Shown piece by piece: positions 16,085 through 39,831 of a stretch of DNA of 64,000 nucleotides. Each line of letters opens with the position of its first letter. Position 1 is the stretch's first letter. The position numbers and the translations under genes are program-made. The stretch is from positions 252,908 to 316,907 of the forward strand of contig JAMCUI010000009.1 in NCBI GenBank assembly GCA_023379265.1. Direction: 5' to 3'. Origin of the DNA: Patescibacteria group bacterium (GTDB lineage Bacteria; Patescibacteriota; Microgenomatia; 2-02-FULL-39-11). Under the pieces are notes generated by a model. The model saw only the letters and a list, made by a program, of their open reading frames with translations, ran no database searches and had not been told where the DNA came from.

Positions 16085-16086
16085 AC

Positions 16087-19407: not shown

Positions 19408-20337
19408 ATGAAAATCTTAGTTACTGGCGGAGCAGGATTTATTGCGTCACATATAGTTGATGCTTTTATAGCCAAAGGGTATGAAGTCTGTGTGGTTGAT
19501 AATTTATCCACAGGGCATAGGGACTTTGTAAATAAGAATGCGGTATTTTATGAGGCTGATATAAGAGACAGGAAAGCAATCGAAAAGATTTTTCAGAGAG
19601 AGAAACCAGATATTATAGATCATCATGCGGCACAAATAAGCGTACGTAATTCTGTTGATGATCCTATAAATGATGCGCAGGTAAATCTTCTTGGGCTCTT
19701 AAATCTTTTGGAGACAGGTAGAAAAACAGGTATAAAAAAAGTGATATTTGCTTCATCTGGCGGGGTCGTCTATGGCGAAGCAAAAAAGGTGCCAACGCCT
19801 GAAAGTTATAAACCGTTGCAGCCGTTGTCGCCGTATGGAGTCTCCAAATTGGCTTCCGAGTATTATCTCCATTTTTATCATAAGACCTACGGTATACCAT
19901 TTGTGGCCTTAAGATATTCCAATGTTTATGGACCCAGACAAAATCCGCATGGGGAAGCTGGAGTTGTTGCTATATTCAGTCTCAAGCTATTGTATGGGCA
20001 GGTACCTGTTATAAACGGCGATGGCAGGCAAACTAGGGATTATGTGTATGTAGCTGATGTGGTAAAGGCAAATGTTTTGGCTGCAAAAAAGTCTGTCGTT
20101 GGAGCTTTTAATATCGGGACGGGCAAAGAGACAGATGTGGTGAAAATTTATGAGAAAATCAGAAAATCTACCGATAGTCAGATAGTCGCAAAACACGGCC
20201 CAGCCAAGGATGGGGAGCAGAAGAGGAGTTGTTTAGATGCCTCAATGGCGGATGAAAAATTGGGTTGGGAACCGCAGGTAGATTTATCCAAAGGATTGGA
20301 CTTAACAGTGGCATATTTCAAAAATCTCAGACAATAA
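19408..20337 (+). CDS. NAD-dependent sugar-nucleotide 4-epimerase (UDP-glucose 4-epimerase GalE-like, short form)
   Basis: '[18 protein letters not shown]' Rossmann motif, 'YGVSKLASEYY' (YxxxK) and 'NVYGPRQNP'. The 'SSGGVVYG' pattern fits an epimerase rather than a 4,6-dehydratase. Confidence 0.7.
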   Translation: MKILVTGGAGFIASHIVDAFIAKGYEVCVVDNLSTGHRDFVNKNAVFYEADIRDRKAIEKIFQREKPDIIDHHAAQISVRNSVDDPINDAQVNLLGLLNLLETGRKTGIKKVIFASSGGVVYGEAKKVPTPESYKPLQPLSPYGVSKLASEYYLHFYHKTYGIPFVALRYSNVYGPRQNPHGEAGVVAIFSLKLLYGQVPVINGDGRQTRDYVYVADVVKANVLAAKKSVVGAFNIGTGKETDVVKIYEKIRKSTDSQIVAKHGPAKDGEQKRSCLDASMADEKLGWEPQVDLSKGLDLTVAYFKNLRQ

Positions 20338-20349
20338 AATTATTCTGCA

Positions 20350-21816
20350 ATGATAAAAAATTCAAAAAAAGTCGTAATTCTAGGAGCAGGATTGGCTGGT
20401 TTGGCCGCCGGATATGAATTGTCCAAAAAAGGGATAAACGTGGAGATCGTGGAAAAATGGGATGATGTGGGTGGTTTGGCTCGTACCATAAATGTAAATG
20501 ACTTTCAGTTTGATACTGGCCCGCACCGTTGGTATACCAAAAGCAATATGGTTAACCGGTGGATGTTGAAACTTCTTGGTAACGAGGTAATAAAAGTCCC
20601 AAGACTGACAAGGATATATTTTGACGGGAAATTCTTCTATTATCCCATAAAACTTATGAACGCCCTTTCGGGAATTGGTATATGGAAAGCCATAAAAGCC
20701 GTAATTGATTATATTTACGCCAGAATCCGCGCAAGGATTTTCCAGCCGAAACTATTAACCATGGAAGATGGCTATATTAATCAATTCGGCAAAACTCTGT
20801 ATGAACTTTTTTTCAAGCGTTATAGTGAGAAATTGTGGGGAGCGGACTGTCGAACTATTTCCATTGATTGGGTGGGACAGCGGACCCGCGGGCTGAATAT
20901 TTTTACCCTTATTAGAGAGACGTTGTTTAAGAGCAAAAGTGTAGTGTCTCTTGTGGATGAATTCTCTTACCCCAAAAAAGGAGTGGGTAGGCTAGCCCAG
21001 AAAATGGCTGAAGAAATAAAGAAAAAGGGAGGGAGAATATACTTGAGTGCTGAAGTGATCGGTATTTCCTGTGAAAAAAACAGCATTAAGTCAGTTGAAG
21101 TATCCTTTAAGAGTAAAAAGAAAACCAGACTTTTAGCTGATTATTTTATTTCAAGCATTCCCCTAAATGAATTGGTCAGCCGGATGACCCCACGCCTAGA
21201 CATTAAATATCTGAATTTAGCTTCAAAGCTCACCTACAGAGATGAATTACAGGTTGCGCTATTTGTAAAAAAAACGCATATTACTCCAGATACATGGATT
21301 TATGTCCATCCAAAGGAGATTCCATTTATGAGAGTGATGGAAATGGATAATTGGAGTGATGAATTATCTCCTGAAGGGACAACTACTTTAGTTTTTGAGG
21401 TGGCCTGTACGATGGGAGATGCCGTGTGGCGTAAAAATGATAAAAATGTCATTGATATGGTATCAAATTCTTATATAAAGGAGTTTAAGCTTATTAAAAA
21501 AAGCGATATATTGGGAGGATATGTCCACCGAGTACCCAAAGAATATCCTGTCTATCATGTTAATTATGATGACGATGTCTTAAAGATTAAAGATTTATTG
21601 AAACAATTTTCCAATCTTCAGATTATCGGCAGGAACGGTACTTTCCGTTATAACAATATGGATCATTCAATTGAGATGGGATTGTATGCCGCTTGGAATA
21701 TTATTGCTGGTCGGAAAAAATATGACATAGAGTCGGTAAATATTGAAAGAGAATATCTAGAGGAGAAAAAAATTGAGAATTTAGAGGATGAGACAGTTGA
21801 GACTGAAGATGAGTAA
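20350..21816 (+). CDS. Glf-family flavoenzyme (NDP-sugar pyranose/furanose mutase, UDP-galactopyranose mutase-like, long form with acidic C-tail)
   Basis: 'VVILGAGLAGLAAGYEL...GG' FAD dinucleotide fold, 'GPHRWYT' and 'FDGKFFYYPI', and 'LYELFFKRYSEKLWG', which closely matches the Glf 'LYEKFFRGYTEKQWG' region. 488 aa, with a C-terminal 'EDETVETEDE' tail. Confidence 0.6.
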   Translation: MIKNSKKVVILGAGLAGLAAGYELSKKGINVEIVEKWDDVGGLARTINVNDFQFDTGPHRWYTKSNMVNRWMLKLLGNEVIKVPRLTRIYFDGKFFYYPIKLMNALSGIGIWKAIKAVIDYIYARIRARIFQPKLLTMEDGYINQFGKTLYELFFKRYSEKLWGADCRTISIDWVGQRTRGLNIFTLIRETLFKSKSVVSLVDEFSYPKKGVGRLAQKMAEEIKKKGGRIYLSAEVIGISCEKNSIKSVEVSFKSKKKTRLLADYFISSIPLNELVSRMTPRLDIKYLNLASKLTYRDELQVALFVKKTHITPDTWIYVHPKEIPFMRVMEMDNWSDELSPEGTTTLVFEVACTMGDAVWRKNDKNVIDMVSNSYIKEFKLIKKSDILGGYVHRVPKEYPVYHVNYDDDVLKIKDLLKQFSNLQIIGRNGTFRYNNMDHSIEMGLYAAWNIIAGRKKYDIESVNIEREYLEEKKIENLEDETVETEDE

Positions 21817-21822: not shown

Positions 21823-22593
21823 ATGACAAAAAATACCAAAGAAAAGAAAGTTGTAGTTGTTATGCCGGCATACAATGCCGAAAAGACAATAAAAAAAACC
21901 TACAATGATATCCCCCAAGACGCAGTAGACGAAGTGATAGTTGTAGATGATGATAGCGCTGACAGTACTGTGAAAATTGCCAAAAAGTTGAAACTTGCCG
22001 TATTTGTTCACGATAAAAATTTGGGATACGGAGGGAATCAGAAGACGTGTTATAGGGAGGCTTTGAGGAAAAATGCCGATATAATAGTGATGATTCATCC
22101 TGATTATCAGTATGATGCCACTTTGACTAAATATCTTGTACAACCAATCATTGACGGAAAGTTTGATATCATGTTAGGAAGCAGGATAAGAAGCAGAAAA
22201 GAGGCTCTTTCAGGAGGCATGCCTTTGTATAAATACATAAGCAACAGGGTTCTTACACTTTTTGAGAATATCATTCTTGATCTGAATCTTTCCGAATACC
22301 ATACAGGTTTTCGTGCTTTTAGCAGTAATGTTCTGAAGAGGTTGCCTTTAGATAAATTTTCAGATGACTTTGTTTTTGACCAGGAAATTCTAGTTAGTGC
22401 CCATGCTGCTGGTTTTACCATTGGAGAAATTGCAGTACCCGTGCGCTATTTTCCTGAAGCATCTTCAATAAATTTTATCCGTTCTACTAGATATGGAATA
22501 ATGATATTGTATACGCTGGTGAAGTATTTACTTAAAGATTACGGCATGGATTTTCCAATATTCCATTTTAAGGGAAAAAGTGAAAAAAACTGA
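21823..22593 (+). CDS. Polyprenyl-phosphate glycosyltransferase, GT2 Dpm1/GtrB/CsbB-like
   Basis: 'VVVVMPAYNAEKTI', 'VIVVDDDSADST' and 'GSRIRSRKEALSGGMPLYKYISNRVLTLFEN...YHTGFRAF' (the ArnC/GtrB-type R-x-R...S/T region). Immediately followed by a YfhO-like membrane protein. Confidence 0.65.
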   Translation: MTKNTKEKKVVVVMPAYNAEKTIKKTYNDIPQDAVDEVIVVDDDSADSTVKIAKKLKLAVFVHDKNLGYGGNQKTCYREALRKNADIIVMIHPDYQYDATLTKYLVQPIIDGKFDIMLGSRIRSRKEALSGGMPLYKYISNRVLTLFENIILDLNLSEYHTGFRAFSSNVLKRLPLDKFSDDFVFDQEILVSAHAAGFTIGEIAVPVRYFPEASSINFIRSTRYGIMILYTLVKYLLKDYGMDFPIFHFKGKSEKN

Positions 22594-24232
22594 CTTTATA
22601 GTTATTGCCTTAATTATCCTTTTTTCTGTACTTACCCTAAAGGATCTTTTTATTCCGGGATTTTATACAAGTCATGATGGCATTCACCAGATAGTCAGAC
22701 TGTATTATTTTGATAAACTCATGCATGATGGACAGTTTCCACCGCGTTATGTCGGAAACCTGTTGTACGGTTTTGGTTATCCTCTTTTCAGTTTTTCTTA
22801 CCAAATGCCGTGGTTTTTCGGGGAGCCTCTTCATTTTGCTGGATTGTCGGTAATTGATAGTGTAAAGATGACTTTTCTAGTCACTTATGTTCTTTCAGGA
22901 ATTGCTATGTTTATCTTCCAAAAAAAAGTATTTGGTACTTTACCAGCTATTGTAGGTACTGTTGTATACCAATATGCTCCCTACAGATTTTCCAATATTT
23001 TTGTCAGGGCGGCAATCGGGGATGCGACGTCGTTTATTTTTCCTCCACTTTTTTTCTTGGCCATTTATATGATTAAAAAAGGCAAAAAAATTAGTGGAAA
23101 ATGGATTTCACTCTCGGCATTATCCATTGCCGGCCTATTACTTTCCCATGCAATGGTATTTTTCTTATTTATTATTTGTATAGGTATCTATTTTATTTTG
23201 TCATATCTTTTTGTCCCAAATAAAAAACTATTCCTTGTATCTTTTATTTCCATCGGATTTCTAGCATCGGGTCTATCCGCTTATTATTTTTTTCCCTCTC
23301 TAATTGAAAGAAACTATACTGTATTTGCTTCTATATTTGGTCCTGAATTTGTCGGAAATACATTTTTGTCTATTAAAGACTTGATCTACTCTCCTTGGGG
23401 GTACGGTATGATGAACGCGAAAGAAGGAGCAATGTCTCTTCAGGTGGGAATTGGTCAATGGTTATCTGTTATTGCAGGTTTTATAGGATTGATTTGGCTT
23501 TCTTTGCGTCGCAATCTAAGTAATAAAGAAAAACTACTTAGAGGGGAAGCGTTTATTTTTCTTGTCATTTTTATTTTTTCTGTCTTTCTAATGCTTCCTT
23601 TATCGCTATTTTTATGGAAACTTATAAGCCGCTTCGCCATAGTTGATTTTACGTGGAGAGTATTGCCTGTGACAGTGTTAGCAGCATCATATCTGGCCGG
23701 ATTTTTATCATCTGTTGTTCACGGCAGAGAGTTTTTTGCGTTTTTATTAGTACTTATCACGTTATACGCGGTGAGAAATGATACTAGAATAAACCAGGTG
23801 CAGAACTGGTCGATGCCGTTTTACCTTAGTCTAGAATCGACTACTAATCAGAATGATGAATATACACCGCAGTGGGTTAGATCAGATCTGTTGAAACCCG
23901 GCTTACCCAAAGTAGAATTTTCCGGAAATAATGCCGTGATAGATATAAAAGACATGAAATCAAATTATATAAGTTTGGCGGAAAATGCTTCACAATCAGG
24001 CATTTTGCAGATAAACAGAGTTTATTATCCCGGGTGGGTGGCTTATGTCAACGGCCGGCAAGCTCAAATAAATTACAAAGATAACGGTTTTATGAAATTG
24101 CGCGTTGCCGCAGGAAGAAATCTTGTTGAGGCAAAGTTTATGGAGACGCCGCTTAGAAAGATAAGTGATATTCTATCGATCATCTCGCTTTTGGTCGCAT
24201 CATATCTCATAATTAGATACAGGAAAACATGA
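22580..24232 (+). CDS. Polytopic membrane protein, YfhO/GT-C-like (candidate lipid-linked sugar transferase partner of the upstream GT2)
   Basis: 550 aa. First-loop 'FYTSHDGIHQIVRLYYFDKLMHDGQFPPRYV...GFGYPLFSFSYQMPW'. Its C-terminal soluble domain 'VYYPGWVAYVNGRQAQI' shares a motif with the C-terminus of ORF 3497-5809. Confidence 0.45.
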   Translation: MKKTDFIVIALIILFSVLTLKDLFIPGFYTSHDGIHQIVRLYYFDKLMHDGQFPPRYVGNLLYGFGYPLFSFSYQMPWFFGEPLHFAGLSVIDSVKMTFLVTYVLSGIAMFIFQKKVFGTLPAIVGTVVYQYAPYRFSNIFVRAAIGDATSFIFPPLFFLAIYMIKKGKKISGKWISLSALSIAGLLLSHAMVFFLFIICIGIYFILSYLFVPNKKLFLVSFISIGFLASGLSAYYFFPSLIERNYTVFASIFGPEFVGNTFLSIKDLIYSPWGYGMMNAKEGAMSLQVGIGQWLSVIAGFIGLIWLSLRRNLSNKEKLLRGEAFIFLVIFIFSVFLMLPLSLFLWKLISRFAIVDFTWRVLPVTVLAASYLAGFLSSVVHGREFFAFLLVLITLYAVRNDTRINQVQNWSMPFYLSLESTTNQNDEYTPQWVRSDLLKPGLPKVEFSGNNAVIDIKDMKSNYISLAENASQSGILQINRVYYPGWVAYVNGRQAQINYKDNGFMKLRVAAGRNLVEAKFMETPLRKISDILSIISLLVASYLIIRYRKT

Positions 24233-25032
24233 ACAAAATATCCGTCGCCATAGCTACATATAATGAAGGGAAAAACATCAGCAAATGCTTGGAAAGTGTG
24301 AAAAGTTGGGTGGATGAGATTGTGATTGTGGATGGTACATCAACAGATGACACTGTTAAAATAGCCAAAGAGTTTGGCGCGAGTGTAATTTCTGCAGATA
24401 ATCCTGACATGTTTCATATAAACAAGCAGAAAGCCATAGACGCATGTAAATCTGGAAATTGGATACTCCAACTTGATGCAGACGAAGTAGTGTCAACCGA
24501 TTTGAAAAAAGAAATTATAGTTGCTATTAATAACCAACAACCAATAACTCATAGCTTACAATCAATCAATGGTTTCTGGCTTCCACGCAAGAATTTTTTC
24601 TTGGGAAGATTTTTTGAAAAAGGAGGACAGTATCCTGACTATACTTTGAGGTTATACCGTAAGGGAAAGGGCAAGTTGCCCTGTAAAAGCGTCCATGAAC
24701 AGGCGGTTGTAGAAGGAGAGACTGCATATCTTAAAAACCCTCTTTTGCACTACCCATATCCAAATTTCGCGCATTATTTAGAACATTTCAATAAATATAC
24801 CGATATATTTGCCGACGAGTTGATAGACAAGAAAATTTCAATTTCTTTTTCTTCTATAGTTTCTTTTATGTTTATAAAACCATTTTTATGGTTTCTTTTG
24901 ACTTTTGTAAGGCATAAAGGCTTCGTAGACGGTTTTCCCGGATTTGTTTTTTCCTTCTTTTCTGCTTTGCGATATCCTGTTTCCTATATTAAATATTGGG
25001 AAAAGAAGAAACTAGGAAATATTTCCAAGTAA
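24229..25032 (+). CDS. Family 2 glycosyltransferase with C-terminal membrane segment
   Basis: 'ISVAIATYNEGKNI', 'IVIVDGTSTDDT', 'QLDADE' and 'YPDYTLRLYRKGKG'. Paralog of ORFs 2-769 and 1671-2444. Hydrophobic C-terminus. Confidence 0.7.
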   Translation: MNKISVAIATYNEGKNISKCLESVKSWVDEIVIVDGTSTDDTVKIAKEFGASVISADNPDMFHINKQKAIDACKSGNWILQLDADEVVSTDLKKEIIVAINNQQPITHSLQSINGFWLPRKNFFLGRFFEKGGQYPDYTLRLYRKGKGKLPCKSVHEQAVVEGETAYLKNPLLHYPYPNFAHYLEHFNKYTDIFADELIDKKISISFSSIVSFMFIKPFLWFLLTFVRHKGFVDGFPGFVFSFFSALRYPVSYIKYWEKKKLGNISK

Positions 25033-25033
25033 A

Positions 25034-26095
25034 ATGATAAAAGGAAGAAAACTCAAAGTTGCAATTGTTGTTCCTCCGATTGCAGGCCACAAGATGCGCG
25101 GAACCGGCAATTACACTCAAAATCTATATACGGCTTTGAATAAGATTCAAGATGTTGAAGTAAGTTTAAAGACGATCGATGAAATTAGATATTGCACTGC
25201 CGATGTTATCCATTTTCCTTATTTTGACCCTTTTTTTTTGACTCTTCCCTTCATAAAGTCAAAGCCTACAGTAGTCACGGTTCATGATCTTATCCCTCTT
25301 CGTTACCCGAGTCATTTTCCATCCGGTTTAAAGGGTTTTCTAAAATGGAATCTGCAGAAAATTTCTCTTTGGAGCGTCGACGCAGTCATTACTGACTCTG
25401 TTTCATCACAGAATGATATTGAAGGATTTGCCGATATTAAAAAGGAGAAAATACATGTGATCTATCTGGGGGTAACACCGGAATTTAGCAAAGCATACTC
25501 CAAAGATTATAAAGAAAAAGTAATAAAAAGTTTGTCGCTTCCCCAAAAGTTCGTACTAAATGTGGGGGATATCAATTACAATAAAAACATCCCTGGGTTA
25601 TTGAAGGCTTTTTCAGTTTTAGTTTCAAGGAATTCTGGATTGAAATTAATCTTAGTAGGTGAAGGATTTACGCGGCCATCGACAGAATTGGTTCAGATGA
25701 CGGAGTTGATGAGAGAGATGGAAATAGAAGATAAGGTATTGAGAGTTAGTTCATTGGATGTACTCGAATTGGCAGTTGTATATCAACTAGCACAAGTGTA
25801 TGTGCAGCCATCATTTGCTGAGGGATTTGGTCTTCCCGTTCTTGAGGCTTTTGCTGCCGGGTGTCCAGTGGTAGTTGCAAACACCACCAGTCTCCCCGAG
25901 GTGGTAGGTAGTGCCGCCGTTATGTTTAACCCACAGAATACGGATACGCTTGTAAAGTCAATTTCCCTCCTCTTAAAAGACAAGGGTAAAAGAGATTACT
26001 TTATATCCCAGGGAAAGAAGAGAGCAAAATTATTTACTTGGGAAAAATGTGCCAGAGAGACAGCGGAAATTTACAGAAAATTTATCCATAATTAA
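25034..26095 (+). CDS. GT4-family glycosyltransferase
   Basis: 'SFAEGFGLPVLEAFAAGCPVVVANTTSLPEVVG' (glycos_transf_1 signature). Confidence 0.75.
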   Translation: MIKGRKLKVAIVVPPIAGHKMRGTGNYTQNLYTALNKIQDVEVSLKTIDEIRYCTADVIHFPYFDPFFLTLPFIKSKPTVVTVHDLIPLRYPSHFPSGLKGFLKWNLQKISLWSVDAVITDSVSSQNDIEGFADIKKEKIHVIYLGVTPEFSKAYSKDYKEKVIKSLSLPQKFVLNVGDINYNKNIPGLLKAFSVLVSRNSGLKLILVGEGFTRPSTELVQMTELMREMEIEDKVLRVSSLDVLELAVVYQLAQVYVQPSFAEGFGLPVLEAFAAGCPVVVANTTSLPEVVGSAAVMFNPQNTDTLVKSISLLLKDKGKRDYFISQGKKRAKLFTWEKCARETAEIYRKFIHN

Positions 26096-26202
26096 ATAGG
26101 AGCTACGCATTCCAATATCATGCTGAATTTGTTTGTGATTCCGAGACTAGTTCGGGATGACAATCTAAACTACGATTTATTGCGTAACTCCTGATTAAAA
26201 TA

Positions 26203-27399
26203 ATGTTTATTTTTATTACTTTTTTAATCTGGAGAGTAGGTTTATTTTCATTGGCCGCTTTAGGTTCAAATTTATTGCCTTTCGCGCCCCGTTTTCCTTA
26301 TGCGGATATGCTTCTTATTCCCTCAGGTCTTCCGTCATGGTTTTGGTCGTTTGCCAATTTTGATGGAGTACATTATCTGACTATTGCCAAAGAAGGTTAT
26401 AGTGCCCAATATACTCAAGTGTTTTTTCCATTTTTTCCTCTAGTATTGAGATTTTTTCAAAATTTGATCTTTTTTGCTAGTCCTGTTTTTGTTGGAATAA
26501 CTTTATCAAGCCTTATATTTCTGGCGTCTTTATATGTTTTGGGAAAGTTAATGTCGCTTGATTATAAAAAAAGTGAAGTGAAATGGATAATTCTTTTTTT
26601 TGTTTTTTTTCCAACATCATTTTTTTTTGGTAGCCTTTATACCGAAGGTATTTTTCTTTTATTTATGCTCAGTGCATTTTATGAGGCTAGAAGAAAACAT
26701 TTCAGACTGGCGGCAGTTTTGGGTACTCTTGCTTCAGCGACGAGACTTGTTGGCATATTTCTCATTCTTGCCTTATGGTGGGAAGAAATTATTGCAAAGA
26801 GGGAGAAGATGGGCCCAAAAGGTTCAAAAACAATTAAATTAGAGACAAAGTACACGGGATATTTTGAAGTTATAATCAATTATTTGAATTATATCGTTCA
26901 CTCTCCAATAACATATATTCTTCCCATAGGACTTCTGGCCTATATGATTTTTCTACAGTGGCAATATGGGGATTTTCTATATTTCTGGCATGCACAGCCG
27001 GTTTTTGGCGCCCAGAGAAGCGGAGCAGGCATAATACTTTTGCCACAGGTAGTTTGGAGATATTTCAAGATTTTTTCAAATTTAAGTCCGCTTAAAGAAC
27101 CTTTTATTATTGCGTTTACTGAATTTGTAGCAACGATATTATCAATAGTTCTCTTAATTATTGCTTATTTGAAGAAAGTTCGGCTTTCATATCTTATCTT
27201 TTCTTGTTTGACGATATTGGTACCAACGCTTACCGGAACCTTTTCTAGTATGCCTCGATATATATTGGTAGCGTTCCCCCTTTTTATAGTTCTTGGGCTT
27301 ATTAAGAACAAATGGTTGAAGATAGTATTGTTGACGATTTTTATCGTACTTCTTTCTTTTTACACAATACTTTTTACAAGAGGTCACTGGGTAAGCTGA
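26203..27399 (+). CDS. GT-C fold mannosyltransferase-like membrane protein, PIG-V/Gpi18 (GT76)-like
   Basis: 'FANFDGVHYLTIAKEGYSAQYTQVFFPFFPL' matches the PIG-V 'WD--HFL-IAEHGY--EH--AFFPGFPL' signature. 398 aa, polytopic. Confidence 0.55.
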   Translation: MFIFITFLIWRVGLFSLAALGSNLLPFAPRFPYADMLLIPSGLPSWFWSFANFDGVHYLTIAKEGYSAQYTQVFFPFFPLVLRFFQNLIFFASPVFVGITLSSLIFLASLYVLGKLMSLDYKKSEVKWIILFFVFFPTSFFFGSLYTEGIFLLFMLSAFYEARRKHFRLAAVLGTLASATRLVGIFLILALWWEEIIAKREKMGPKGSKTIKLETKYTGYFEVIINYLNYIVHSPITYILPIGLLAYMIFLQWQYGDFLYFWHAQPVFGAQRSGAGIILLPQVVWRYFKIFSNLSPLKEPFIIAFTEFVATILSIVLLIIAYLKKVRLSYLIFSCLTILVPTLTGTFSSMPRYILVAFPLFIVLGLIKNKWLKIVLLTIFIVLLSFYTILFTRGHWVS

Positions 27400-27434
27400 T
27401 TGAATACATCTTAATTCTCCTATAAAATTAAGCA

Positions 27435-28115
27435 ATGAGACTTTTGATAGGGATACCTGCCTATAATGAAGAAAAAATGATTGGGGTTGTTATTTCATCT
27501 TTGCCTAAAAGACTTACGGGAGTTGATAAGGTTGATATAGTGGTGGTTGACGATGGGTCTGAAGATAGAACTGGAGAAATTGCCCAATCTAAAAGGGTTA
27601 CAGTTCTGCGTCATATCATAAACAGAGGATTGGGTGGAGCGTTAAAAACTATATTTGCATTTGCATTAGAGAGAAATTATGATATTTTAGTGACTTTTGA
27701 CGCTGATGGACAACATGAGTCAAAATATATATCTGATGTTATTAAACCTATTCTTTCACAAAAATCAGATGTGGTTATAGGTACCAGATGGAAAAGTAAG
27801 GCACATGTACCCTTTTCCCGAAGATTGATAAACCAATTAGCAAACGTAATAACTTTTATTCTTTACCATGTTTGGACTTCTGATTCTCAATCGGGATTTC
27901 GGGCATTTAATAAAAACTCAATAAACAAAATTAAATTGCAGACTGACGGAATGGAAGTTTCTAGTGAATTTTTTAAGGAGATAAAAAGTAATAATCTGAG
28001 ATTTTCTGAAATATCCATAATTCCTGTTTATTCTGATTATTCATTAGAGAAAGGCCAAAGATTGAGTAATGCTCCTTCAGTAATGATAAATTTACTTTTG
28101 AGGCTATTAAGATAG
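27435..28115 (+). CDS. Polyprenyl-phosphate glycosyltransferase, GT2 Dpm1/GtrB-like (soluble form)
   Basis: 'LLIGIPAYNEEKMI', 'VVVDDGSEDRT', 'FDADGQHE' and 'GTRWKSKAHVPFSRRLINQLANVI...SGFRAF'. Confidence 0.65.
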   Translation: MRLLIGIPAYNEEKMIGVVISSLPKRLTGVDKVDIVVVDDGSEDRTGEIAQSKRVTVLRHIINRGLGGALKTIFAFALERNYDILVTFDADGQHESKYISDVIKPILSQKSDVVIGTRWKSKAHVPFSRRLINQLANVITFILYHVWTSDSQSGFRAFNKNSINKIKLQTDGMEVSSEFFKEIKSNNLRFSEISIIPVYSDYSLEKGQRLSNAPSVMINLLLRLLR

Positions 28116-28119
28116 ATCT

Positions 28120-28485
28120 ATGCATTTAGTATTTACACAAGTTGTCTTAAGTATTTTTATTGTATTTGCTCTATCGCGTGTTTTTTTGCGGTTCAAAAGC
28201 GGAGAAGTGACATTTTTGGGATTCCTATTTTGGATTTTGCTTTTCGGATCTGCTTTGGCAATTATCATTTATCCGCCCATTTCTGGGGGTATCGCCAGAA
28301 TATTGGGTATAGGCCGTGGAGTAGATCTTGTTATTTATACTTCAATCGTACTTCTTTTTTATCTTGTTTTTAGACTTTATGTCTATCTTCAAGATATGCG
28401 TCATGAACTGACGAAATTGGTACAGAAGCTGGCTATGAAGGAGTTGGATGAAAAAAATGAAAAAAAACCCTCTTCCCAAAATTAG
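28120..28485 (+). CDS. Small 4-TM membrane protein, DUF2304-like (commonly paired with Dpm1-like GT2)
   Basis: 121 aa. 'GIGRGVDLVIYTSIVLLFYLVFRLYVYLQD' followed by a charged C-terminal tail. Directly downstream of the GT2. Confidence 0.4.
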   Translation: MHLVFTQVVLSIFIVFALSRVFLRFKSGEVTFLGFLFWILLFGSALAIIIYPPISGGIARILGIGRGVDLVIYTSIVLLFYLVFRLYVYLQDMRHELTKLVQKLAMKELDEKNEKKPSSQN

Positions 28486-29233
28486 TGTAATTACCCCCTC
28501 ATTCAATCAGGGTAACTTTATTGCAGAAACTATAGACTCGGTTCTTTCCCAGGGATATAAGAATTTGGAGTATTGGATAATTGATGGAGGTTCAACAGAT
28601 GATACAATTTCGGTACTAAAAAGATACGGTAAGAAAATCCAATGGATGTCCAAAAAAGATAAAGGTCAAACAGATGCGATAAATAAAGGGATGGAAAAAG
28701 TGAGTGGGGATATAGTTACTTATCTTAACTCAGATGATATTTTATTACCGGGAAGTATAGAAAAAATTGCTGACTTTTTTTCTGTAAATCCGGATATATT
28801 CTGGATTACTGGGAAATGCAAGATAATAGATGAAAAAGGTAATGAAATAAGGAAACTGGTTACATTATACAAAAACTTCTGGCTGAAATATTCCAGAAAT
28901 CCAATATTTCTCTCTATTTTGAATTTCATTTCCCAGCCTGCGACTTTCTGGAGAGCAGAAGTAATAAAATCAGTCGGTTTATTTGACGCCAGTCTTTATT
29001 ACACTATGGACTATGATTATTGGTTAAGAATGAGTAGAATATATAAACTGGGTTTTATCGATGATTATCTAGCATCATTCAGGTTTCATGATAAATCAAA
29101 AAGCTCAAAAAATGTTAAGAAATTGATTGAAGAAGGTTATAAGGTGGTCAAAGGACATGATAAGGGAATGTTGCCGACAATACACAGGTTACACGATATT
29201 TTCACTCTAACCGCTTACTCTATTATTAAATAA
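28448..29233 (+). CDS. Family 2 glycosyltransferase
   Basis: 'ISVITPSFNQGNFIAETIDSVLSQ', 'YWIIDGGSTDDT' and 'YLNSDD'. The start could instead be 28457; it overlaps the upstream ORF. Confidence 0.75.
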   Translation: MKKMKKNPLPKISVITPSFNQGNFIAETIDSVLSQGYKNLEYWIIDGGSTDDTISVLKRYGKKIQWMSKKDKGQTDAINKGMEKVSGDIVTYLNSDDILLPGSIEKIADFFSVNPDIFWITGKCKIIDEKGNEIRKLVTLYKNFWLKYSRNPIFLSILNFISQPATFWRAEVIKSVGLFDASLYYTMDYDYWLRMSRIYKLGFIDDYLASFRFHDKSKSSKNVKKLIEEGYKVVKGHDKGMLPTIHRLHDIFTLTAYSIIK

Positions 29234-30187
<954 letters not shown>

Positions 30188-30199
30188 AATTTTGTATTT

Positions 30200-31222
30200 A
30201 TGGTTAGCAAGAGATTCTGGAAAAAGAAAAAAGTACTCGTAACAGGTGCTTCATTTATAGGGTCACATCTTATAGATAGACTGGTGGATATGGGAACGAA
30301 GGTAAGAGTAGTAAATATAAGTAAAAAACATCTACCCTTTTTTTCTAAACTAGTGAGAAGTGGCAGCGTTGAATTCATATCTAGAGATCTTCGTAATTTA
30401 GAAAATGCGCAAAAAAGTGTAAGAGGAATTGATATTGTTTTTCACCTTGCCTGTAATTACGGAGGTAGAGGATACATAGATTTACATCAGGGTTCTACCT
30501 CATCTAATTTGCTTCTTGATGGATCTGTATTTTTGGCTTCACTAAATGAAAGAGTGGAGAAAGTGGTTTTTGCCTCTTCAGGTTGTGTTTATCCAAATTT
30601 TTTACAGACTGATCCGAATAAAACAATATATCTCAAGGAAGAAATGGTGAAACCTCCATATGATGTAGATAATATGTACGGATGGGCAAAACTTATGGGT
30701 GAGATGACTTTGCGTGCATATTATAGAGATTTCGGATTAAAGTCCGTTTCATGCAGGTATTTTTCCGTCTATGGAGAAAGAGAGGCAGAGAACCATGCGG
30801 TGATCGCCATGATTGCCAAAGCCTTCATTAGACAAAATCCTTATGAAATCTGGGGTACGGGAGAACAGATAAGAAATTGGACTTATGTAGCCGATACTGT
30901 GGAAGGTACGCTTTTAGCTGCAGAAAAGATAAATGACGCAACATCGGTAAATCTTGGAACTACTGAGAGAACAAAAGTAATTGATGCGGCTCGGGAGATT
31001 TTACGTTGTACGGGATCTAATGCTAAAATAAAAGTTTTACCATCCATGCCTACAGGACCTTACAATAGGGTAGCCGATAACCGGCTGGCAAAAAAGCTTT
31101 TAGGTTGGGAGCCTCAGGTGAAGTTTATGGATGGGTTACATAGGACAATAGAATGGTATTTTGCCAACAAAAATGAAAATCAGATCAGAAATTGCTTAAA
31201 AAAGATTCTTTTAGGGAGCTAA
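30200..31222 (+). CDS. NAD-dependent epimerase/dehydratase family protein, diverged paralog of fcl
   Basis: The N-terminus '[21 protein letters not shown]' parallels fcl '[22 protein letters not shown]' but lacks one Gly of the Rossmann motif. 'YGWAKL' supplies YxxxK. 340 aa. Confidence 0.6.
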   Translation: MVSKRFWKKKKVLVTGASFIGSHLIDRLVDMGTKVRVVNISKKHLPFFSKLVRSGSVEFISRDLRNLENAQKSVRGIDIVFHLACNYGGRGYIDLHQGSTSSNLLLDGSVFLASLNERVEKVVFASSGCVYPNFLQTDPNKTIYLKEEMVKPPYDVDNMYGWAKLMGEMTLRAYYRDFGLKSVSCRYFSVYGEREAENHAVIAMIAKAFIRQNPYEIWGTGEQIRNWTYVADTVEGTLLAAEKINDATSVNLGTTERTKVIDAAREILRCTGSNAKIKVLPSMPTGPYNRVADNRLAKKLLGWEPQVKFMDGLHRTIEWYFANKNENQIRNCLKKILLGS

Positions 31223-31231
31223 CTTTCCCCT

Positions 31232-31259
31232 TTTACACGACCACCGGTTTTTATATACT
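31232..31259 (+). promoter_or_regulatory. Candidate sigma70-like promoter
   Basis: TTTACA (31232-31237), a 16-nt spacer, then TATACT (31254-31259), in the gap between the stop at 31222 and the ATG at 31279. Confidence 0.35.
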
Positions 31260-31278
31260 TACGTTATTCCATTTGCAT

Positions 31279-32934
31279 ATGTTACGAATGTTTTCCTCAA
31301 CAATAAAAAAACATACTCCACTTTTTTTTATAATTTTTGCTTATATACTTCTTATTTACCGATATTCCGGTTTCGTGCCACTTTGGGATTCTTTCGAGTA
31401 TGTCAATACTCATATGTACAAAGCCGTGATTTCACAATTTAGCCTGCTGAATTTTAACTTTGCCGAGCATGTTTCTTTTGCCTGGACACTACTTACCAGC
31501 TGGCCTCAGTATTTAAGCTTTGGAAATATGACTCTTCTTCATTTTACTGTAGCCTTTTTTACTGTTCTTTCAATTATTTCATTTTACGGTATATTAAAAC
31601 ACCTTTTTTCCGGCAATAAGCATAATATTGAAGTAAATCTATTGACATTCCTATACGCTTTCTATCCTCCTTTTGTAGCAAATGCCCTGCAATATAGTCC
31701 TGATTACGGAGTTTTGGTTTTCTATACAATTTTTCTTTATTTTTTGATTACTAAACATAAAAAACTTACCATTTTGTCGGGTCTATGTCTCGTATTTACA
31801 AAAGAAACAGGTATTGTCTTATACATAATAAGCATATTTATACTCCATCTTTTTACTATATTTGAACAAAGACTGAATAGAAAAAATATACAAAATTTCA
31901 TATGGAATTTTTCAGCATACATATTGCCTTTTTTATTCTATGTTTTTTTTCAGTTTATTAAGGTTTTGAATTTTAGGCAAGAAGTTTTACCTTGGTATTT
32001 AGATCCAATGTCAGGAAAATTGCAAATGCCGTTATTTCCGGCAAGTGTTGTCCAAAAAATCCCCTTTTCTTATTTTTTGGGGATTTTTGTAATAAATTTT
32101 AATTGGATCTTATCTACGTTCCTCATAATAGGATTGGTACTCAGTTTATTCCATTTTTTCTCTCAAAATAGCATGAAATCCGGAAAAACTTGGGGCATAA
32201 ATAAGTCAATTTCCTATTTATATATAGTTTTTCTTAGTGCAACGGCTATTTTCAGCCTTTATAAAATCTTTACCAATCTGAGATATTTTTTGCCGCTTTA
32301 TGTTTTTATGATTATATTATTTTATTTTGGTTTGAAATCTGTTTTTCGAAAAAGGCGTATTGTAATTTTCATATTATCGATTATAGTTATAGTTTTTTTT
32401 ATATCCTGTTTTAGGACTGTAGATCCGGTTTCAAGGAAAATTTACGGTACTTTCAAATTCGGAAATCACGACATTCTGGATATGACGTCGATTACAGGAG
32501 AATGTTGCGGATATGGACGTGATCAACTCGTATATAATCTTGAGTATACTCATTTACACTACCTTTTAAATGATTTGCTCCATAATATTCGTCCTCCCAA
32601 CGAAGATGCTTTTGCCTATAATCTTCATGCAGGACCATTTCTATTTCCAGTTTGGGATAAAAGCAATTTTTCCAGAACTGTAAGCCATAAGAATGTACAC
32701 CCGGTATATATAATCAACTGGTATAGTTATCTTTATAATAAGCCTAAAATAATCTATTATATTGAAATGCCCAATACTGACAATACAAATTATCTCCAGT
32801 GGTATGAGACCAGAATGTATAGCCCGACTTTGAAATTACATTATGCTTTAGTGAAAGAAATGAGTTTTGATGATGACGGATACGCCCTTAAAGTATATAA
32901 GTTGAAATATAAAAGTGAGACACCTACCAGATAG
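31279..32934 (+). CDS. Polytopic membrane protein of unknown family (possible GT-C-like transferase or polymerase)
   Basis: At least 12 hydrophobic segments and a soluble C-terminal ~150 aa. 'VPLWDSFEYVNTHMY' acidic/aromatic first loop. Start chosen at the first ATG after the upstream stop; the track ORF begins at 31192. Confidence 0.35.
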   Translation: MLRMFSSTIKKHTPLFFIIFAYILLIYRYSGFVPLWDSFEYVNTHMYKAVISQFSLLNFNFAEHVSFAWTLLTSWPQYLSFGNMTLLHFTVAFFTVLSIISFYGILKHLFSGNKHNIEVNLLTFLYAFYPPFVANALQYSPDYGVLVFYTIFLYFLITKHKKLTILSGLCLVFTKETGIVLYIISIFILHLFTIFEQRLNRKNIQNFIWNFSAYILPFLFYVFFQFIKVLNFRQEVLPWYLDPMSGKLQMPLFPASVVQKIPFSYFLGIFVINFNWILSTFLIIGLVLSLFHFFSQNSMKSGKTWGINKSISYLYIVFLSATAIFSLYKIFTNLRYFLPLYVFMIILFYFGLKSVFRKRRIVIFILSIIVIVFFISCFRTVDPVSRKIYGTFKFGNHDILDMTSITGECCGYGRDQLVYNLEYTHLHYLLNDLLHNIRPPNEDAFAYNLHAGPFLFPVWDKSNFSRTVSHKNVHPVYIINWYSYLYNKPKIIYYIEMPNTDNTNYLQWYETRMYSPTLKLHYALVKEMSFDDDGYALKVYKLKYKSETPTR

Positions 32935-32955: not shown

Positions 32956-34236
32956 TCAGAATCTTTTAAGAAATCTTTCTATCATCCTTTTGGTATATTC
33001 GATCATATCAGAGTTTATTCCTGGAAAAACTCCCAACCAGAAAGCTCGCGCCATCACTTCGTCGGCATTTACTATTTTTCCTGCAGTTTTATATTTTATT
33101 TTCAGGTACGCCGGATGCCGCAGAAGGTTTCCTGAAAAGACATTTCTGGTACCTATTCTTTCTTTTTCCAGATATTCAGTAAGCTGATTTCTGGTAAACG
33201 GTGCTTCCTTTCTGACAAGAAGTGGAAATCCAAACCAGCAAGGATCTTCTTTATCTGTTGGAGTAAGAAGTTCGAAGAATTTGATATATTTACTGAAGAA
33301 TTTATATAACTTTTTATAATTCTCTTTCCTTATTTTTATAAAATACGGCAGTTTTGAGAGTTGAGCCAAGCCAATGGCGGCTTGGAAATCCGTAAGTTTC
33401 AGATTGAAACCTATTTGTGAATAGATATATTTATGGTCGTAGCCTGCCGGCAACTCTCCCATCTTCCAGCCAAACCTCTTGCCGCATGTATCATCTTTTC
33501 CCGTATCACACCAGCAGTCCCTGCCCCAGTCGCGAAATTGCCTGATTGAGCGGTGGATAAGGGGGTTATTGGTAACTACCGCTCCTCCTTCACCCATTGT
33601 AATCTGATGAGCAGGATAAAAGGAGAATGTGGATATATCGCCATATGTTCCCACCATTTTCCCGTCATAACGGCTTCCCAAGGCATCGCAGCAGTCCTCA
33701 ATCAACCATAGATGGTATTTTTTGGCTAGTGCCACTATTTTATCCAGATTATAGGGATTACCAAGGGTGTGAGCGACCATTATCAGTTTTGTCTTTTTGG
33801 TTATCGCTTTTTCGATTTTGTCCGTGTCGATGTTAAGAGAAGAAAGTTCGGCGTCCACAAAGACAGGCGTCATGCCAAAGATGATGCCGGGGTTGACGGT
33901 CGTGGGGAAGGCGACAGCGCCGGTAATGAACTCATCACCTTTTTGTAAACGCCTTTCACCAAAAACTTTTGATGTAAGGGAAAAAAAGGCAGCCAGATTG
34001 GCAGAAGAGCCTGAGTTTACCAATGAAACATAACGTACTCCAAGGAAACGCGCGAATTCCCTTTCAAACTCTTTGGCAAATCGTCCTTCTGTCCACCAAC
34101 CATCTTTTGCTGCTGAGACGGCATTTTCTATTTCGTTTTCGTCAAATACTTTTCCAGAAGCTGGAATATAAGTCTTTCCCGGTATAAATGTTGTATCGTA
34201 AGGCATAGAGTATATTAACTTTGTATTATAATACAT
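32956..34236 (-). CDS. ddhC: CDP-6-deoxy-D-xylo-4-hexulose 3-dehydrase (E1; PMP-dependent Fe-S enzyme, DegT/DnrJ/EryC1 superfamily)
   Basis: Collinear with Salmonella RfbH: 'PASGKVF', 'GSSANL', 'AFPTTVNP', 'LIMVAHTLGN' (His in place of the PLP lysine), 'LIEDCCDALG', 'FYPAHQITMGEGGAV' and 'RDWGRDCWCDTGKDDTCGKRFG' (Fe-S cysteine cluster). Confidence 0.85.
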   Translation of the reverse strand: MYYNTKLIYSMPYDTTFIPGKTYIPASGKVFDENEIENAVSAAKDGWWTEGRFAKEFEREFARFLGVRYVSLVNSGSSANLAAFFSLTSKVFGERRLQKGDEFITGAVAFPTTVNPGIIFGMTPVFVDAELSSLNIDTDKIEKAITKKTKLIMVAHTLGNPYNLDKIVALAKKYHLWLIEDCCDALGSRYDGKMVGTYGDISTFSFYPAHQITMGEGGAVVTNNPLIHRSIRQFRDWGRDCWCDTGKDDTCGKRFGWKMGELPAGYDHKYIYSQIGFNLKLTDFQAAIGLAQLSKLPYFIKIRKENYKKLYKFFSKYIKFFELLTPTDKEDPCWFGFPLLVRKEAPFTRNQLTEYLEKERIGTRNVFSGNLLRHPAYLKIKYKTAGKIVNADEVMARAFWLGVFPGINSDMIEYTKRMIERFLKRF

Positions 34237-34265
34237 GGCAATTACTTATAGAAATTAATTTCCAG

Positions 34266-34973
34266 ATGGGAACTGCTTCACTATCAATAATTTTGCCGGT
34301 ATTCAATGAAAAAGAAGTTATAGAATATGTCCTTTCGGAATGGAAAACGCTTCTCGAAAAAAACAAAATCCCTTTCAATTTCGTCATTTGTGAGGATGGC
34401 TCAACTGATGGAACAAAAGAATTATTAAAAAGACTAAAATTGAATTATCCTATTATCCTCAATCAGAAAAGGAAAAGGAGAGGTTACGGTAATGCAGTAC
34501 TTGATGGTATAAAGTCTGCATTGTCAGAGTTTTTACTTTGTGTCGATTCTGACGGTCAATGTGATCCAGAAGATTTTCTTAAGTTTTGGAAGGAGAGAAT
34601 GTCGGCAGACATACTGATTGGGAGGAGACGGGAAAGGTCCGATCCTCTACAAAGAAAAGTATTTTCTAATTTATTTAGAATAGTCCATAAAACACTTTTT
34701 ACAACGTCTATACATGATCCATCTACTCCCTTTGTCTTATTTAGAAAGAAGGTAGTTACTCCCTATATAAATTATTTGACTTACTTAAACGAAGGATTTT
34801 GGTGGGGTTTTATAGCTATGGCTGTTAAGGCTAAATTATCCGTAAATGAAATACCGATTAACCATCGTAAAACACTATGTAGTGTCAAGACAAAGGTCTA
34901 TACACTAGATAAAATTCCGTCTATTGCTTTCAGAAATCTGTTAGGACTTTTTCGTTTATACTTTACAAAATAA
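34266..34973 (+). CDS. Polyprenyl-phosphate glycosyltransferase, GT2 Dpm1/GtrB-like
   Basis: 'SLSIILPVFNEKEVI', 'FVICEDGSTDGT', 'VDSDGQCDPED' and 'GRRRERSDPLQRKVFSNLFRIV...DPSTPFVLFRKKVV' (ArnC/GtrB-type). The track ORF starts at a TTG at 34221; the ATG at 34266 is preferred. Confidence 0.6.
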   Translation: MGTASLSIILPVFNEKEVIEYVLSEWKTLLEKNKIPFNFVICEDGSTDGTKELLKRLKLNYPIILNQKRKRRGYGNAVLDGIKSALSEFLLCVDSDGQCDPEDFLKFWKERMSADILIGRRRERSDPLQRKVFSNLFRIVHKTLFTTSIHDPSTPFVLFRKKVVTPYINYLTYLNEGFWWGFIAMAVKAKLSVNEIPINHRKTLCSVKTKVYTLDKIPSIAFRNLLGLFRLYFTK

Positions 34974-34986
34974 ACGCTTATTGATT

Positions 34987-36977: not shown

Positions 36978-36990
36978 ACGAGGTAAAAAT

Positions 36991-39828: not shown

Positions 39829-39831
39829 ATC

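Follow-up and report, generated by a model that had tools for sequence, protein, structure and literature searches.

Does an uncultured, ultrasmall CPR bacterium encode a mannosyltransferase of the eukaryotic PIG-V/Gpi18 type (GPI mannosyltransferase II), and does this enzyme form a unit with the putative donor synthase encoded next to it? The question is raised by a 398-aa protein encoded in the window, by which we mean the whole stretch of DNA analysed, where a glycan island spans the full 64 kb. Microgenomates have genomes of about 1 Mb and presumably grow attached to host cells, and very large glycan islands are notable in them because surface glycans are likely to be central to this attachment. 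An earlier sequence-only reading had described the protein as a PIG-V/GT76-like mannosyltransferase that, together with a Dpm1-like synthase and its DUF2304-like partner, mirrors the eukaryotic donor-transferase logic in a compact three-gene module.

The gene has an ATG start and a TGA stop (27397–27399) and its product is a polytopic, membrane-embedded protein carrying FDGVHYLTIAKEGY...FFPFFP. The motif and the FFP block are indeed present as described, namely at residues 53–79 (FDGVHYLTIAKEGYSAQYTQVFFPFFP), and among 39 homologues with 45–84% identity D54 (codon 26362–26364), G55, V56, H57, Y58, Y66, Q72, F75, P76 and P79 are invariant, as are many polar residues. From its conservation D54 is presumed to be the candidate catalytic Asp. 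The loop bearing it would be the first extracytoplasmic loop if the outward facing is taken over from PIG-V, which has a functional acidic motif between its first two transmembrane segments (PMC6056205). Despite a gap of 107 nt upstream of the gene, a scan of positions 24000–31500 gave no sign of an own transcription unit, with neither promoter-like sites (26 vs 26.8 in shuffled sequence) nor terminator-like sites (3 vs 4.5) above expectation.

In a search with PF04188 the protein scored 27.6 bits (E 2.3e-6) and thus above the gathering threshold of 22.4. The match is partial, covering residues 42–179 on profile positions 50–197 of 443, and weak when compared to that of human PIGV (E 4e-216, PMC6056205); 30 of the 39 family members match the model, the best of them with E 5e-13. 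Using hhalign, the family profile could be aligned to 17 vertebrate PIGV sequences with a probability of 97% (E 1.1e-10). The motif block is in register here, and it is identical to residues 66–92 of macaque-type PIGV at 12 of 27 positions. The same profile gave a probability of 5% against the window's own PMT_2 GT-C paralogs. Reciprocally, an HMM of vertebrate PIGV assigned 34.4 bits to the PIG-V-like protein and at most 9.5 bits to ten other GT-C proteins of the window. The vertebrate set was compiled from database proteins named ‘GPI mannosyltransferase 2’, and a human PIGV sequence served as probe only, the best retrieved protein of that name being 97% identical to it. The claimed PIG-V/GT76 kinship is borne out by these searches, and on profile evidence the protein is a specific yet remote PIG-V/Gpi18 homologue, beyond the shared GT-C fold. 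Within the PIG-V/Gpi18 family (PF04188, COG5542) it falls into a large branch from Patescibacteria (Microgenomates, probably Gottesmanbacteria). The protein shows the polytopic GT-C fold common to solved GT-C enzymes and does not match the GT87 model (PimE-like, PF09594). None of the solved GT-C enzymes (PimE, ALG3/6/9/12, Gpi14, PIG-U, ArnT, PMTs, STT3) was matched by the family profile at E ≤ 10, and a PIG-V structure was not among the matches of a fold search of PDB libraries. A PDB sequence-profile search gave procathepsin X as its sole match (E 0.026), which we dismissed as chance.

Besides the GT-C fold and the profile–profile and reciprocal HMM similarity over residues ~15–309, the protein has in common with PIG-V/Gpi18 (PF04188, CAZy GT76) the loop-1 block [WF]-D-x-x-H-[FY]-L-x-I-A-x-x-G-Y...F-F-P-x-[FY]-P and a Y-[ST]-E motif plus a conserved Arg. 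In the hhalign alignment the block lies along W66-D67-A68-E69-H70...F87-F88-P89..P92 of PIGV with D54 opposite D67. In contrast, E69 lies opposite the invariant V56, so that the D/ExE motif between transmembrane segments 1 and 2 (PMC6056205) is incomplete and retains its first acidic residue alone; E76 and E82 of PIGV are not kept either. Whole-length colinearity including the conserved C-terminal regions of PIG-V is absent, as the alignment stops at residue 309, and the C-terminal ~90 residues compared alone showed no similarity to PIGV (E 0.32). The protein is also about 95 residues shorter, with a C-terminal quarter unrelated by sequence. Its setting differs as well: the host is a bacterium, genes of a GPI pathway are not in view, and the donor synthase encoded next to it belongs to the HexNAc type.

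The branch profile matches 15,742 clusters (50% identity) when E ≤ 1e-3 is required, and 10,648 and 2,397 of them remain at E ≤ 1e-10 and E ≤ 1e-30, respectively. That bacterial homologues are little studied is true of the literature, where our search for a characterised bacterial PIG-V/GT76 protein gave genome-annotation mentions alone and that for CPR envelope glycosylation nothing specific, but the family itself already carries a precomputed PF04188 annotation and the JGI name ‘Gpi18-like mannosyltransferase’. The gene is an ordinary addition to this known COG5542 “Gpi18-like” family annotated by public pipelines, and its genomic context is an expected one. Its importance lies elsewhere: the bacterial PIG-V-like (GT76-like, COG5542) family is very large, and the conserved block of about ten genes described below, with GT2+DUF2304, GT-C and GT2b/GT4, is a defined, clonable set.

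Directly downstream, after a spacer of 35 nt, follows the expected GT2, a protein without transmembrane or hydrophobic segments, and 4 nt past it begins the gene for the DUF2304-like partner, which has three hydrophobic segments (Table 1). The pair thus has the layout of the GacI/GacJ type, in which a TM-less DPMS-like GT2 is directly followed by a three-TM DUF2304 protein. GacJ binds GacI and reduces its Km for Und-P, and Rv3632 is a stimulator of PpgS (bioRxiv 10.1101/180810). All four DUF2304-partnered GT2s described in the literature we read (GacI, EpaI, WpsA and PpgS) have been assigned to polyprenyl-P-GlcNAc or -GalNAc synthesis, with direct support for GacI/J and PpgS/Rv3632 and according to a review for EpaI/J and WpsA/B. 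The top NCBIfam match of the GT2 is PpgS (NF058614), which covers the full length with 141.8 bits and, compared to the cut-off of 370, fails at the equivalog level and indicates family-level kinship only. Judged by these relatives the pair is of the GacI/GacJ, EpaI/J, WpsA/B and PpgS/Rv3632 type and not Dpm1-like as had been proposed.

The GT2 sequence leaves the sugar unsettled, because the PpgS score is far below the cut-off and the nearest solved structure, the Dol-P-Man synthase of P. furiosus (E 4.6e-15), is mannose-specific. Mannose is the less likely sugar, because the pair is of the GacI/GacJ–PpgS/Rv3632 type. We therefore regard it as rather unlikely that the PIG-V-like protein is a true polyprenyl-P-mannose-dependent mannosyltransferase, with the adjacent GT2 as a Dpm1/Ppm1-type synthase and DUF2304 as its membrane partner: the described DUF2304-partnered GT2s use UDP-GlcNAc or UDP-GalNAc, PpgS is the best family model for the adjacent GT2, 12 of 43 related loci have a GalE-like 4-epimerase that separates the GT-C from the GacI-like gene, and an invariant Val replaces the second acidic residue in the D/ExE motif of PIG-V. 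By analogy with these systems the sugar moved by the enzyme is probably not mannose, and if HexNAc proves to be the sugar, PIG-V relatives would not be confined to mannose.

Table 1: Features of the conserved block around the PIG-V-like gene (positions in the window).
Feature	Position	Strand	Basis
GalE-like SDR, block start	19408–20337	+	GalE 200 bits, under cut-off 262
PRK07208-family FAD oxidoreductase, block start	20350–21816	+	PRK07208.1-4 462 bits, over cut-off 389
GT2a, second DPMS/AglJ-like GT2, beside YfhO-like GT-C	21823–22593	+	NCBIfam: AglJ 85 bits, PpgS 60 bits, Dol-P-hexose transferase 44 bits
YfhO-like GT-C, 550 aa	22580–24232	+	weak PF09586 match
GT2b, second conserved upstream neighbour	24229–25032	+	PF00535 69 bits
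GT4 glycosyltransferase, most conserved neighbour	25034–26095	+	PF00534 107 bits
PIG-V/Gpi18-like GT-C-fold membrane glycosyltransferase, 398 aa	26203–27399	+	
Signature block, residues 53–79	26359–26439	+	invariant positions; alignment with PIGV
GacI/PpgS-like GT2, soluble-type polyprenyl-phosphate sugar synthase, 226 aa	27435–28115	+	PF00535 91 bits
DUF2304 small membrane protein, GacJ/Rv3632-like activator subunit, 121 aa	28120–28485	+	PF10066 72.4 bits, cut-off 25.5
GT2c, cytoplasmic GT2 directly past DUF2304	28448–29233	+	PF00535 95 bits
Two SDR sugar-nucleotide enzymes, block end: GDP-fucose-synthase-like, then epimerase/dehydratase	29237–31222	+	Fcl 291 bits, under cut-off 500; PF01370

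As a PIG-V homologue with a GT-C fold adjoins a GT2 of the polyprenyl-phosphate-sugar-synthase type and DUF2304, the proposed donor-synthase plus GT-C logic is reasonable, but its precedent is a known bacterial periplasmic glycosylation scheme and no special mirror of the eukaryotic one. We favour, with a probability of roughly 60%, that the PIG-V-like GT-C uses the polyprenyl-P-sugar from the adjacent GT2+DUF2304 pair on the outer face. In this model, which follows the GacI/J/L and WpsA/B/J precedents, the GT2, activated by its DUF2304 partner, would load a nucleotide-sugar-derived sugar, HexNAc being likelier than mannose, onto polyprenyl monophosphate at the cytoplasmic face. The lipid-linked sugar would perhaps be lengthened by the following GT2 (GT2c is a possible extender) or GT4 before being flipped. 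There, at the outer face, it would be passed by the PIG-V-like enzyme, via the invariant Asp54, to an acceptor glycan or glycolipid, which may be the product of the upstream GT2b and GT4.

To the conservation of this arrangement we turned with a survey of 80 Patescibacteria species loci, with upstream counts on 67 and downstream counts on 65 of them. The GT4 is found within 2 kb upstream of the PIG-V-like gene in 63 of 67 loci (94%; adjacent in 47) and GT2b upstream in 54 (81%), whereas 42 of 65 loci (65%) have a GacI-like GT2 no more than 2.5 kb downstream, accompanied by DUF2304 in 38 and adjacent in 19 (29%), and 23 have none within this distance. The compact three-gene module thus gives way to a larger arrangement: the real unit is the block of about ten genes in the 64-kb glycan island, with GT2b–GT4 upstream as the tightest neighbours of the PIG-V-like gene. 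The order of the first two genes (19408–21816) is unchanged in loci L001–L015. GT2b was rejected as a lipid-sugar synthase because its nearest PDB entries, GmaR and SunS, are protein or peptide glycosyltransferases and not of the polyprenyl-P synthase type. The nearest PDB entries of the GT4 are MshA and BshA; a PIG-A- or PimA-like identity was rejected, the protein giving generic GT4 matches alone and none to PIG-A (PF08288). No GtrA, no MOP/Wzx flippase and no priming phosphoglycosyltransferase turned up in the main non-overlapping ORFs of the window (at least 100 aa), and a three-component system in which the flippase (GtrA/Wzx) is encoded with synthase and GT-C is not seen among them.

Adjacency is no proof of pairing, because GT-C proteins number at least 12 in the window and other polyprenyl-P-synthase-like GT2s at least three (21823–22593, 34221–34973 and 36042–36977, the last being PgfS/ArnC-like). 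The PIG-V-like GT-C might accordingly be independent of the GacI/J-like pair and work with the products of GT2b–GT4 and with the YfhO-like GT-C, taking its donor from GT2a or the PgfS/ArnC-like GT2, while GacI/J would prime an oligosaccharide of its own, assembled by the GTs that are encoded after the pair. The much tighter linkage of GT4 and GT2b speaks for this, as do fusions of an N-terminal YfhO-like and a C-terminal PIG-V-like part in three independent cluster representatives (P0279, P0283 and P0285), which hint at a complex of the two, and the cytoplasmic GT of its own that follows DUF2304 in 38 of 43 related loci. Loci without GacI/J also have a different GT2 beside the GT-C and a flippase that is Wzx-like by reading of its sequence, seen as a polytopic protein of 428 aa after the GT-C in L052 and as a matching region broken into two ORFs in L030. 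We nevertheless consider such independence improbable, since the GT2 comes directly after the GT-C, at a distance of 3–36 nt, both in the window and in its closest relatives, and since in the WpsA/B/J precedent the primed oligosaccharide is, according to a review, itself delivered by the membrane transferase.

A GPI/PIM-like glycolipid anchor, made by the Microgenomates trio GT2b–GT4–PIG-V-like protein and a nearby lipid-sugar synthase in cytoplasmic GT4 steps followed by outer-face GT-C steps, with the CPR family as prokaryotic stock of eukaryotic GPI mannosyltransferase II, is very improbable. The specific PIG-V kinship and the 94% conserved GT4 linkage are compatible with it and neither points to it directly, while the GT4 has no PIG-A/PimA signature and no inositol-lipid genes are in view. 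We give hardly any credence to a non-catalytic or differently acting protein (a PIG-U-like binder or presenter of lipid-linked glycans, a polymerase or a ligase), as all 39 homologues retain D54 of EL1 and many polar residues, and PIG-U is entirely without the loop-1 motif (PMC6056205).

The favoured reading, in which the PIG-V-like GT-C takes its sugar from the adjacent pair, can be compared with GacI/GacJ/GacL from Streptococcus pyogenes, with WpsA/B/J from Lactococcus and with EpaI/J. They share with the window a soluble-type GT2 directly followed by a DUF2304 small membrane protein, the position of both beside a GT-C or other membrane transferase, and a surrounding cluster in which many cytoplasmic GTs go together with a glycan exported by an ABC transporter. 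In contrast, nothing indicates PF04188 membership of GacL or WpsJ, no Wzx flippase (GacK/WpsG) is seen among the main ORFs of this window and the host here is a CPR bacterium. PpgS (Rv3631)/Rv3632/Rv3779 from Mycobacterium tuberculosis is similar in that PpgS is the top NCBIfam model for our GT2 and a DUF2304 partner stimulates the synthase, Rv3779 being the GT-C that uses the PpgS product on the outer face. However, this GT-C is larger and encoded away from the PpgS pair, and the local GT2 stays below the PpgS cut-off as given above. CsbB/YfhO and GtrA/GtrB/Gtr(type), which are three-component glycosylation systems, likewise combine a GT2 lipid-sugar synthase with a GT-C, but this GT-C is of another family, and a GtrA-type flippase was not found in the window. 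GT2a and the YfhO-like protein (21823–24232) repeat this GT2-synthase plus GT-C logic within the window. Finally, GtrB has C-terminal transmembrane helices, whereas the GacI/PpgS-like GT2 does without them and has a DUF2304 partner instead.

Residues 53-79 of the strongly hydrophobic PIG-V-like protein (FDGVHYLTIAKEGYSAQYTQVFFPFFP) agree with the motif named in the sequence-only reading, whose other descriptive statements on the locus were likewise accurate, namely the ORF, the 35-nt spacer between its stop and the next ORF, the GT2 and the DUF2304 protein. The claimed PIG-V homology could be confirmed as well. The PF04188 search proposed there gave 27.6 bits against a gathering threshold of 22.4 (E 2.3e-6), with the match confined to residues 42-179 and profile positions 50-197 of 443; for human PIGV the same model gives E 4e-216 (PMC6056205). 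From A1, an alignment of 39 homologues with 45-84% identity, 30 sequences match PF04188 (best E 5e-13), eight match GT87 weakly and two match ALG10. Vertebrate "GPI mannosyltransferase 2" proteins were fetched with a human PIGV sequence as probe (best database protein 97% identical), which served for retrieval only, all PIGV comparisons being made with database sequences. Aligning A1 with 17 PIGVs by hhalign resulted in a probability of 97% (E 1.1e-10, 286 columns, A1 15-309 on PIGV 39-350), against 5% for the control with the seven PMT_2-type GT-C paralogs of the window. In this register F53-D54-G55-V56-H57-Y58-L-x-I-A62-x-x-G65-Y66 corresponds to PIGV W66-D67-A68-E69-H70-F71-L-x-I-A75-x-x-G78-Y79, F74-F75-P76..P79 to F87-F88-P89..P92, Y146-T-E148 to Y168-S-E170 and R181 to R203. 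At E<1e-3 the CPR-family HMM recovers 119 of the 120 PIGVs, and conversely 261 of 268 CPR proteins are detected by the PIGV HMM, which gives our protein 34.4 bits but none of the window's ten other GT-C proteins more than 9.5 bits. No solved GT-C enzyme was found in the A1 profile search at E<=10. Judged by its sequence, the protein can thus be regarded as a specific but remote PIG-V family member: the loop-1 block, Y-[T/S]-E and the arginine are common to both, whereas the CPR family has an invariant Val at the second acidic position of the PIG-V "D/ExE" loop motif, the alignments of this family revealed no counterparts of the invariant PIGV residues E76 and E82, and no PIGV similarity was found in the last ~90 residues (E 0.32).

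In the AlphaFold2 model built on A1 (mean pLDDT 88, pTM 0.89) some 11 long helices are seen, and the first loop contains short ones. Its structural matches are ALG12 (21.0), AglB (18.1), GPI-MT-I (17.8), Pmt4 (17.6), ALG3 (16.7), ArnT (16.6), PIG-U (15.5), AftB (15.0) and PimE (13.7), and Foldseek returned the identical set of GT-C structures; no PIG-V structure was among the PDB matches. Following the positive-inside rule, D54, E148, R181, the H263-Q265-R272 segment and T346-S348-S349-R352 are predicted to face outward. Although invariant, the H263-Q265-R272 segment is modelled with a pLDDT <50 and in this may resemble the mobile catalytic loop known from other GT-Cs.

Features of the window (positions in nucleotides)
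Feature	Position	Strand	Remarks
YfhO GT-C	3497-5809
Eight tandem PMT_2-type (PMT, GT39-like) GT-C genes	6816-19316	+	seven ORFs of 537-586 aa; short one, 289 aa, at 8516-9385
FAD/NAD-binding oxidoreductase	20350-21816	+	488 aa
GT2a, lipid-sugar-synthase-like	21823-22593	+	256 aa; DPMS/AglJ- and PpgS-like; adjoins YfhO-like gene, overlapping its start
YfhO-like GT-C	22580-24232	+
GT2b	24229-25032	+
GT4	25034-26095	+
PIG-V-like GT-C	26203-27399	+	398 codons; ATG start, TGA stop
GacI-like GT2	27435-28115	+	226 aa; PF00535, 91 bits; no TM segment
DUF2304 protein	28120-28485	+	121 aa; PF10066, 72.4 bits; 4 nt after GacI-like GT2
GT2c	28448-29233	+
GDP-fucose-synthase-like SDR	29237-30187	+	291 bits, below cut-off 500
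Membrane protein	31192-32934	+	580 aa; no Pfam match
Candidate rare-sugar block	32956-46497	mostly -
Lipid-sugar-synthase-like GT2	34221-34973		weaker match
Lipid-sugar-synthase-like GT2	36042-36977	-	PgfS 223 bits, ArnC 131 bits, full length
Wzm/Wzt-type ABC transporter	52619-54817
GT10 (fucosyltransferase-like)	57662-58792	+

The loci of homologues with 84%, 48% and 47% identity share the gene order SDR, FAD oxidoreductase, GT2a, (YfhO-like), GT2b, GT4, PIG-V-like, GacI-like GT2, DUF2304, GT2c and SDR. A scan of species-representative genomes yielded more than 322 relatives, and conservation was counted on the best 80 loci, whose ORFs were scored with the proteins of the window; these 80 are all from Patescibacteria (Gottesman-, Woese-, Curtiss-, Davies-, Levy-, Shapiro-, Collier- and Chisholmbacteria, WWE3). 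GT4 lies within 2 kb upstream of the PIG-V-like gene in 63 of 67 loci and directly adjoins it in 47, with GT2b upstream in 54/67. The GacI-like GT2 is found within 2.5 kb downstream in 42 of 65 loci, has a DUF2304 partner in 38/65 and directly adjoins in 19/65. Therefore, the unit is a conserved multi-gene block and not the compact three-gene module of transferase, Dpm1-like synthase and DUF2304 protein proposed before; the neighbourhood check suggested at that time revealed strong GT4/GT2b linkage and a weaker one for the GacI/J-like pair (GacI-like GT2 plus DUF2304). The tightest coupling is that to GT2b, GT4 and the YfhO-like GT-C. Fusions of an N-terminal YfhO-like with a C-terminal PIG-V-like part (cluster representatives P0279, 946 aa; P0283, 980 aa; P0285, 1033 aa) suggest that both transferases act together, although read-through in gene calling is possible; their YfhO-like part belongs to the same family as the one in the window. 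Of the 43 loci that have the pair, 12 carry a GalE-like SDR between it and the GT-C, and in 38 DUF2304 is followed by a cytoplasmic GT. Two loci lacking the pair were inspected directly, and there a flippase-like gene comes after the PIG-V-like gene, with a different GT2 (271-286 aa) behind it: in L052 (7137-8423) the product is a 428-aa polytopic protein that looks Wzx/MOP-flippase-like by eye, and in L030 (7141-8448) two ORFs (226 and 203 aa) take its place, possibly owing to a frameshift or an error of assembly. Many loci (L007, L010-L012, L016, L018 and others) come from TPA MAG records titled 'uncultured Gammaproteobacteria/Pseudomonadales bacterium', one 'Vitreimonas sp.'; since these records have the gene content of Patescibacteria and their nearest named relatives belong there as well, the taxonomy in the titles seems to be wrong or a placeholder.

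Among the NCBIfam models, the GacI-like GT2 matches PpgS (polyprenyl-P-GalNAc synthase of mycobacteria) best, end-to-end with 141.8 bits and thus far under the equivalog cut-off of 370, and the nearest solved structure is the Pyrococcus Dol-P-Man synthase (E 4.6e-15), ArnC being much weaker. It is therefore a DPMS-like polyprenyl-phosphate glycosyltransferase, and its diagnostic feature is the DUF2304 partner. S. pyogenes GacJ and M. tuberculosis Rv3632 are DUF2304 proteins, the latter stimulating PpgS, and in S. pyogenes polyrhamnose outside the membrane then receives GlcNAc from the GT-C GacL (bioRxiv 10.1101/180810). A review lists EpaI/J and WpsA/B as further pairs; GlcNAc-P-Und made by WpsA/B is a primer that is extended by cytoplasmic GTs, flipped by a Wzx protein and attached by the membrane protein WpsJ (PMC8327497). 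All four pairs described in these sources load HexNAc and not mannose (bioRxiv 10.1101/180810; PMC8327497), which by homology would weigh against the mannose specificity assigned earlier, a proposal depending on this very GT2 not preferring another sugar. HexNAc is put forward tentatively as donor sugar of the system, and mannose appears less likely.

The best named homologues of the PIG-V-like protein are from Candidatus Gottesmanbacteria and Microgenomates, and the entire 64-kb window is glycan machinery, with about 14 GT2s, several GT4s, a GT10-like gene, NeuB, DegT, a TPP enzyme, methyltransferases, a carbamoyltransferase, an AsnB-like enzyme and many SDR sugar-nucleotide enzymes. Neither a GtrA or Wzx flippase nor a priming phosphoglycosyltransferase was detected among its main non-overlapping ORFs of >=100 aa. 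At least three further GT2s look like lipid-sugar synthases, and therefore the GacI/J-like synthase cannot be paired uniquely with the PIG-V-like enzyme on the basis of adjacency. GT2a and the YfhO-like GT-C form a second synthase/GT-C pair (21823-24232, +), which we take to resemble CsbB/YfhO of B. subtilis. The PgfS/ArnC-like synthase could be the supplier of the PMT_2/PMT array, whose seven long ORFs share 26-40% pairwise identity and whose density is unusual for a small-genome CPR bacterium. The mostly minus-strand block contains a DegT aminotransferase, a methyltransferase, the PgfS-like GT2, a sugar-phosphate isomerase-like TIM barrel, the nonulosonic acid synthase NeuB, an SDR, a FkbM methyltransferase, a TPP enzyme, a short-chain dehydrogenase, a GFO/IDH/MocA oxidoreductase, a 4,6-dehydratase-like SDR and a nucleotidyltransferase, a gene set that would suit the synthesis of a modified nonulosonic or another rare sugar. 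GT10 and the GDP-fucose-synthase-like SDR point to a glycan containing fucose or a related 6-deoxyhexose. The FAD/NAD-binding oxidoreductase passes the NCBIfam equivalog PRK07208.1-4 (462 vs 389 bits), named only 'hypothetical protein', and has a weakly UDP-galactopyranose mutase-like N-terminus; it is conserved in Gottesmanbacteria loci, where the block starts with this gene and that of a GalE-like SDR. The 580-aa membrane protein, detected only in the loci of the closest relative (L001, L002, L007), weakly matches 'AZOBR_p60025 family cell surface glycopolymer formation protein' (30.5 vs cut-off 150), as does the PIG-V-like protein (20 bits), and may be another divergent GT-C.

Based on the GAC and Wps precedents we propose a mechanism, with a probability of roughly 0.6, in which cytoplasmic GTs including GT2b and GT4 would build a glycan on a lipid carrier, to be exported by the ABC transporter as candidate. 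The DUF2304-activated GacI-like GT2 would load a sugar, probably GlcNAc or GalNAc, onto polyprenyl phosphate, GT2c might extend it, and after flipping the PIG-V-like GT-C would transfer it to an outer-face acceptor, D54 being the putative catalytic base. Fold, family and the conserved gene order are established by the comparisons above, while donor, acceptor, pairing, topology and the function of D54 are parts of the proposal.

Public pipelines already label the family (PF04188; "Gpi18-like mannosyltransferase"), which comprises 15,742 clusters at 50% identity with E<=1e-3 and 2,397 with E<=1e-30, and our literature search found no paper characterising a bacterial PIG-V-family member. As one more representative of an annotated family the protein is of modest significance; the sequence-only reading recognised its homology correctly and went too far on sugar and compactness. 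Compared with known systems, it most plausibly works like the GT-C component of bacterial extracytoplasmic glycosylation.
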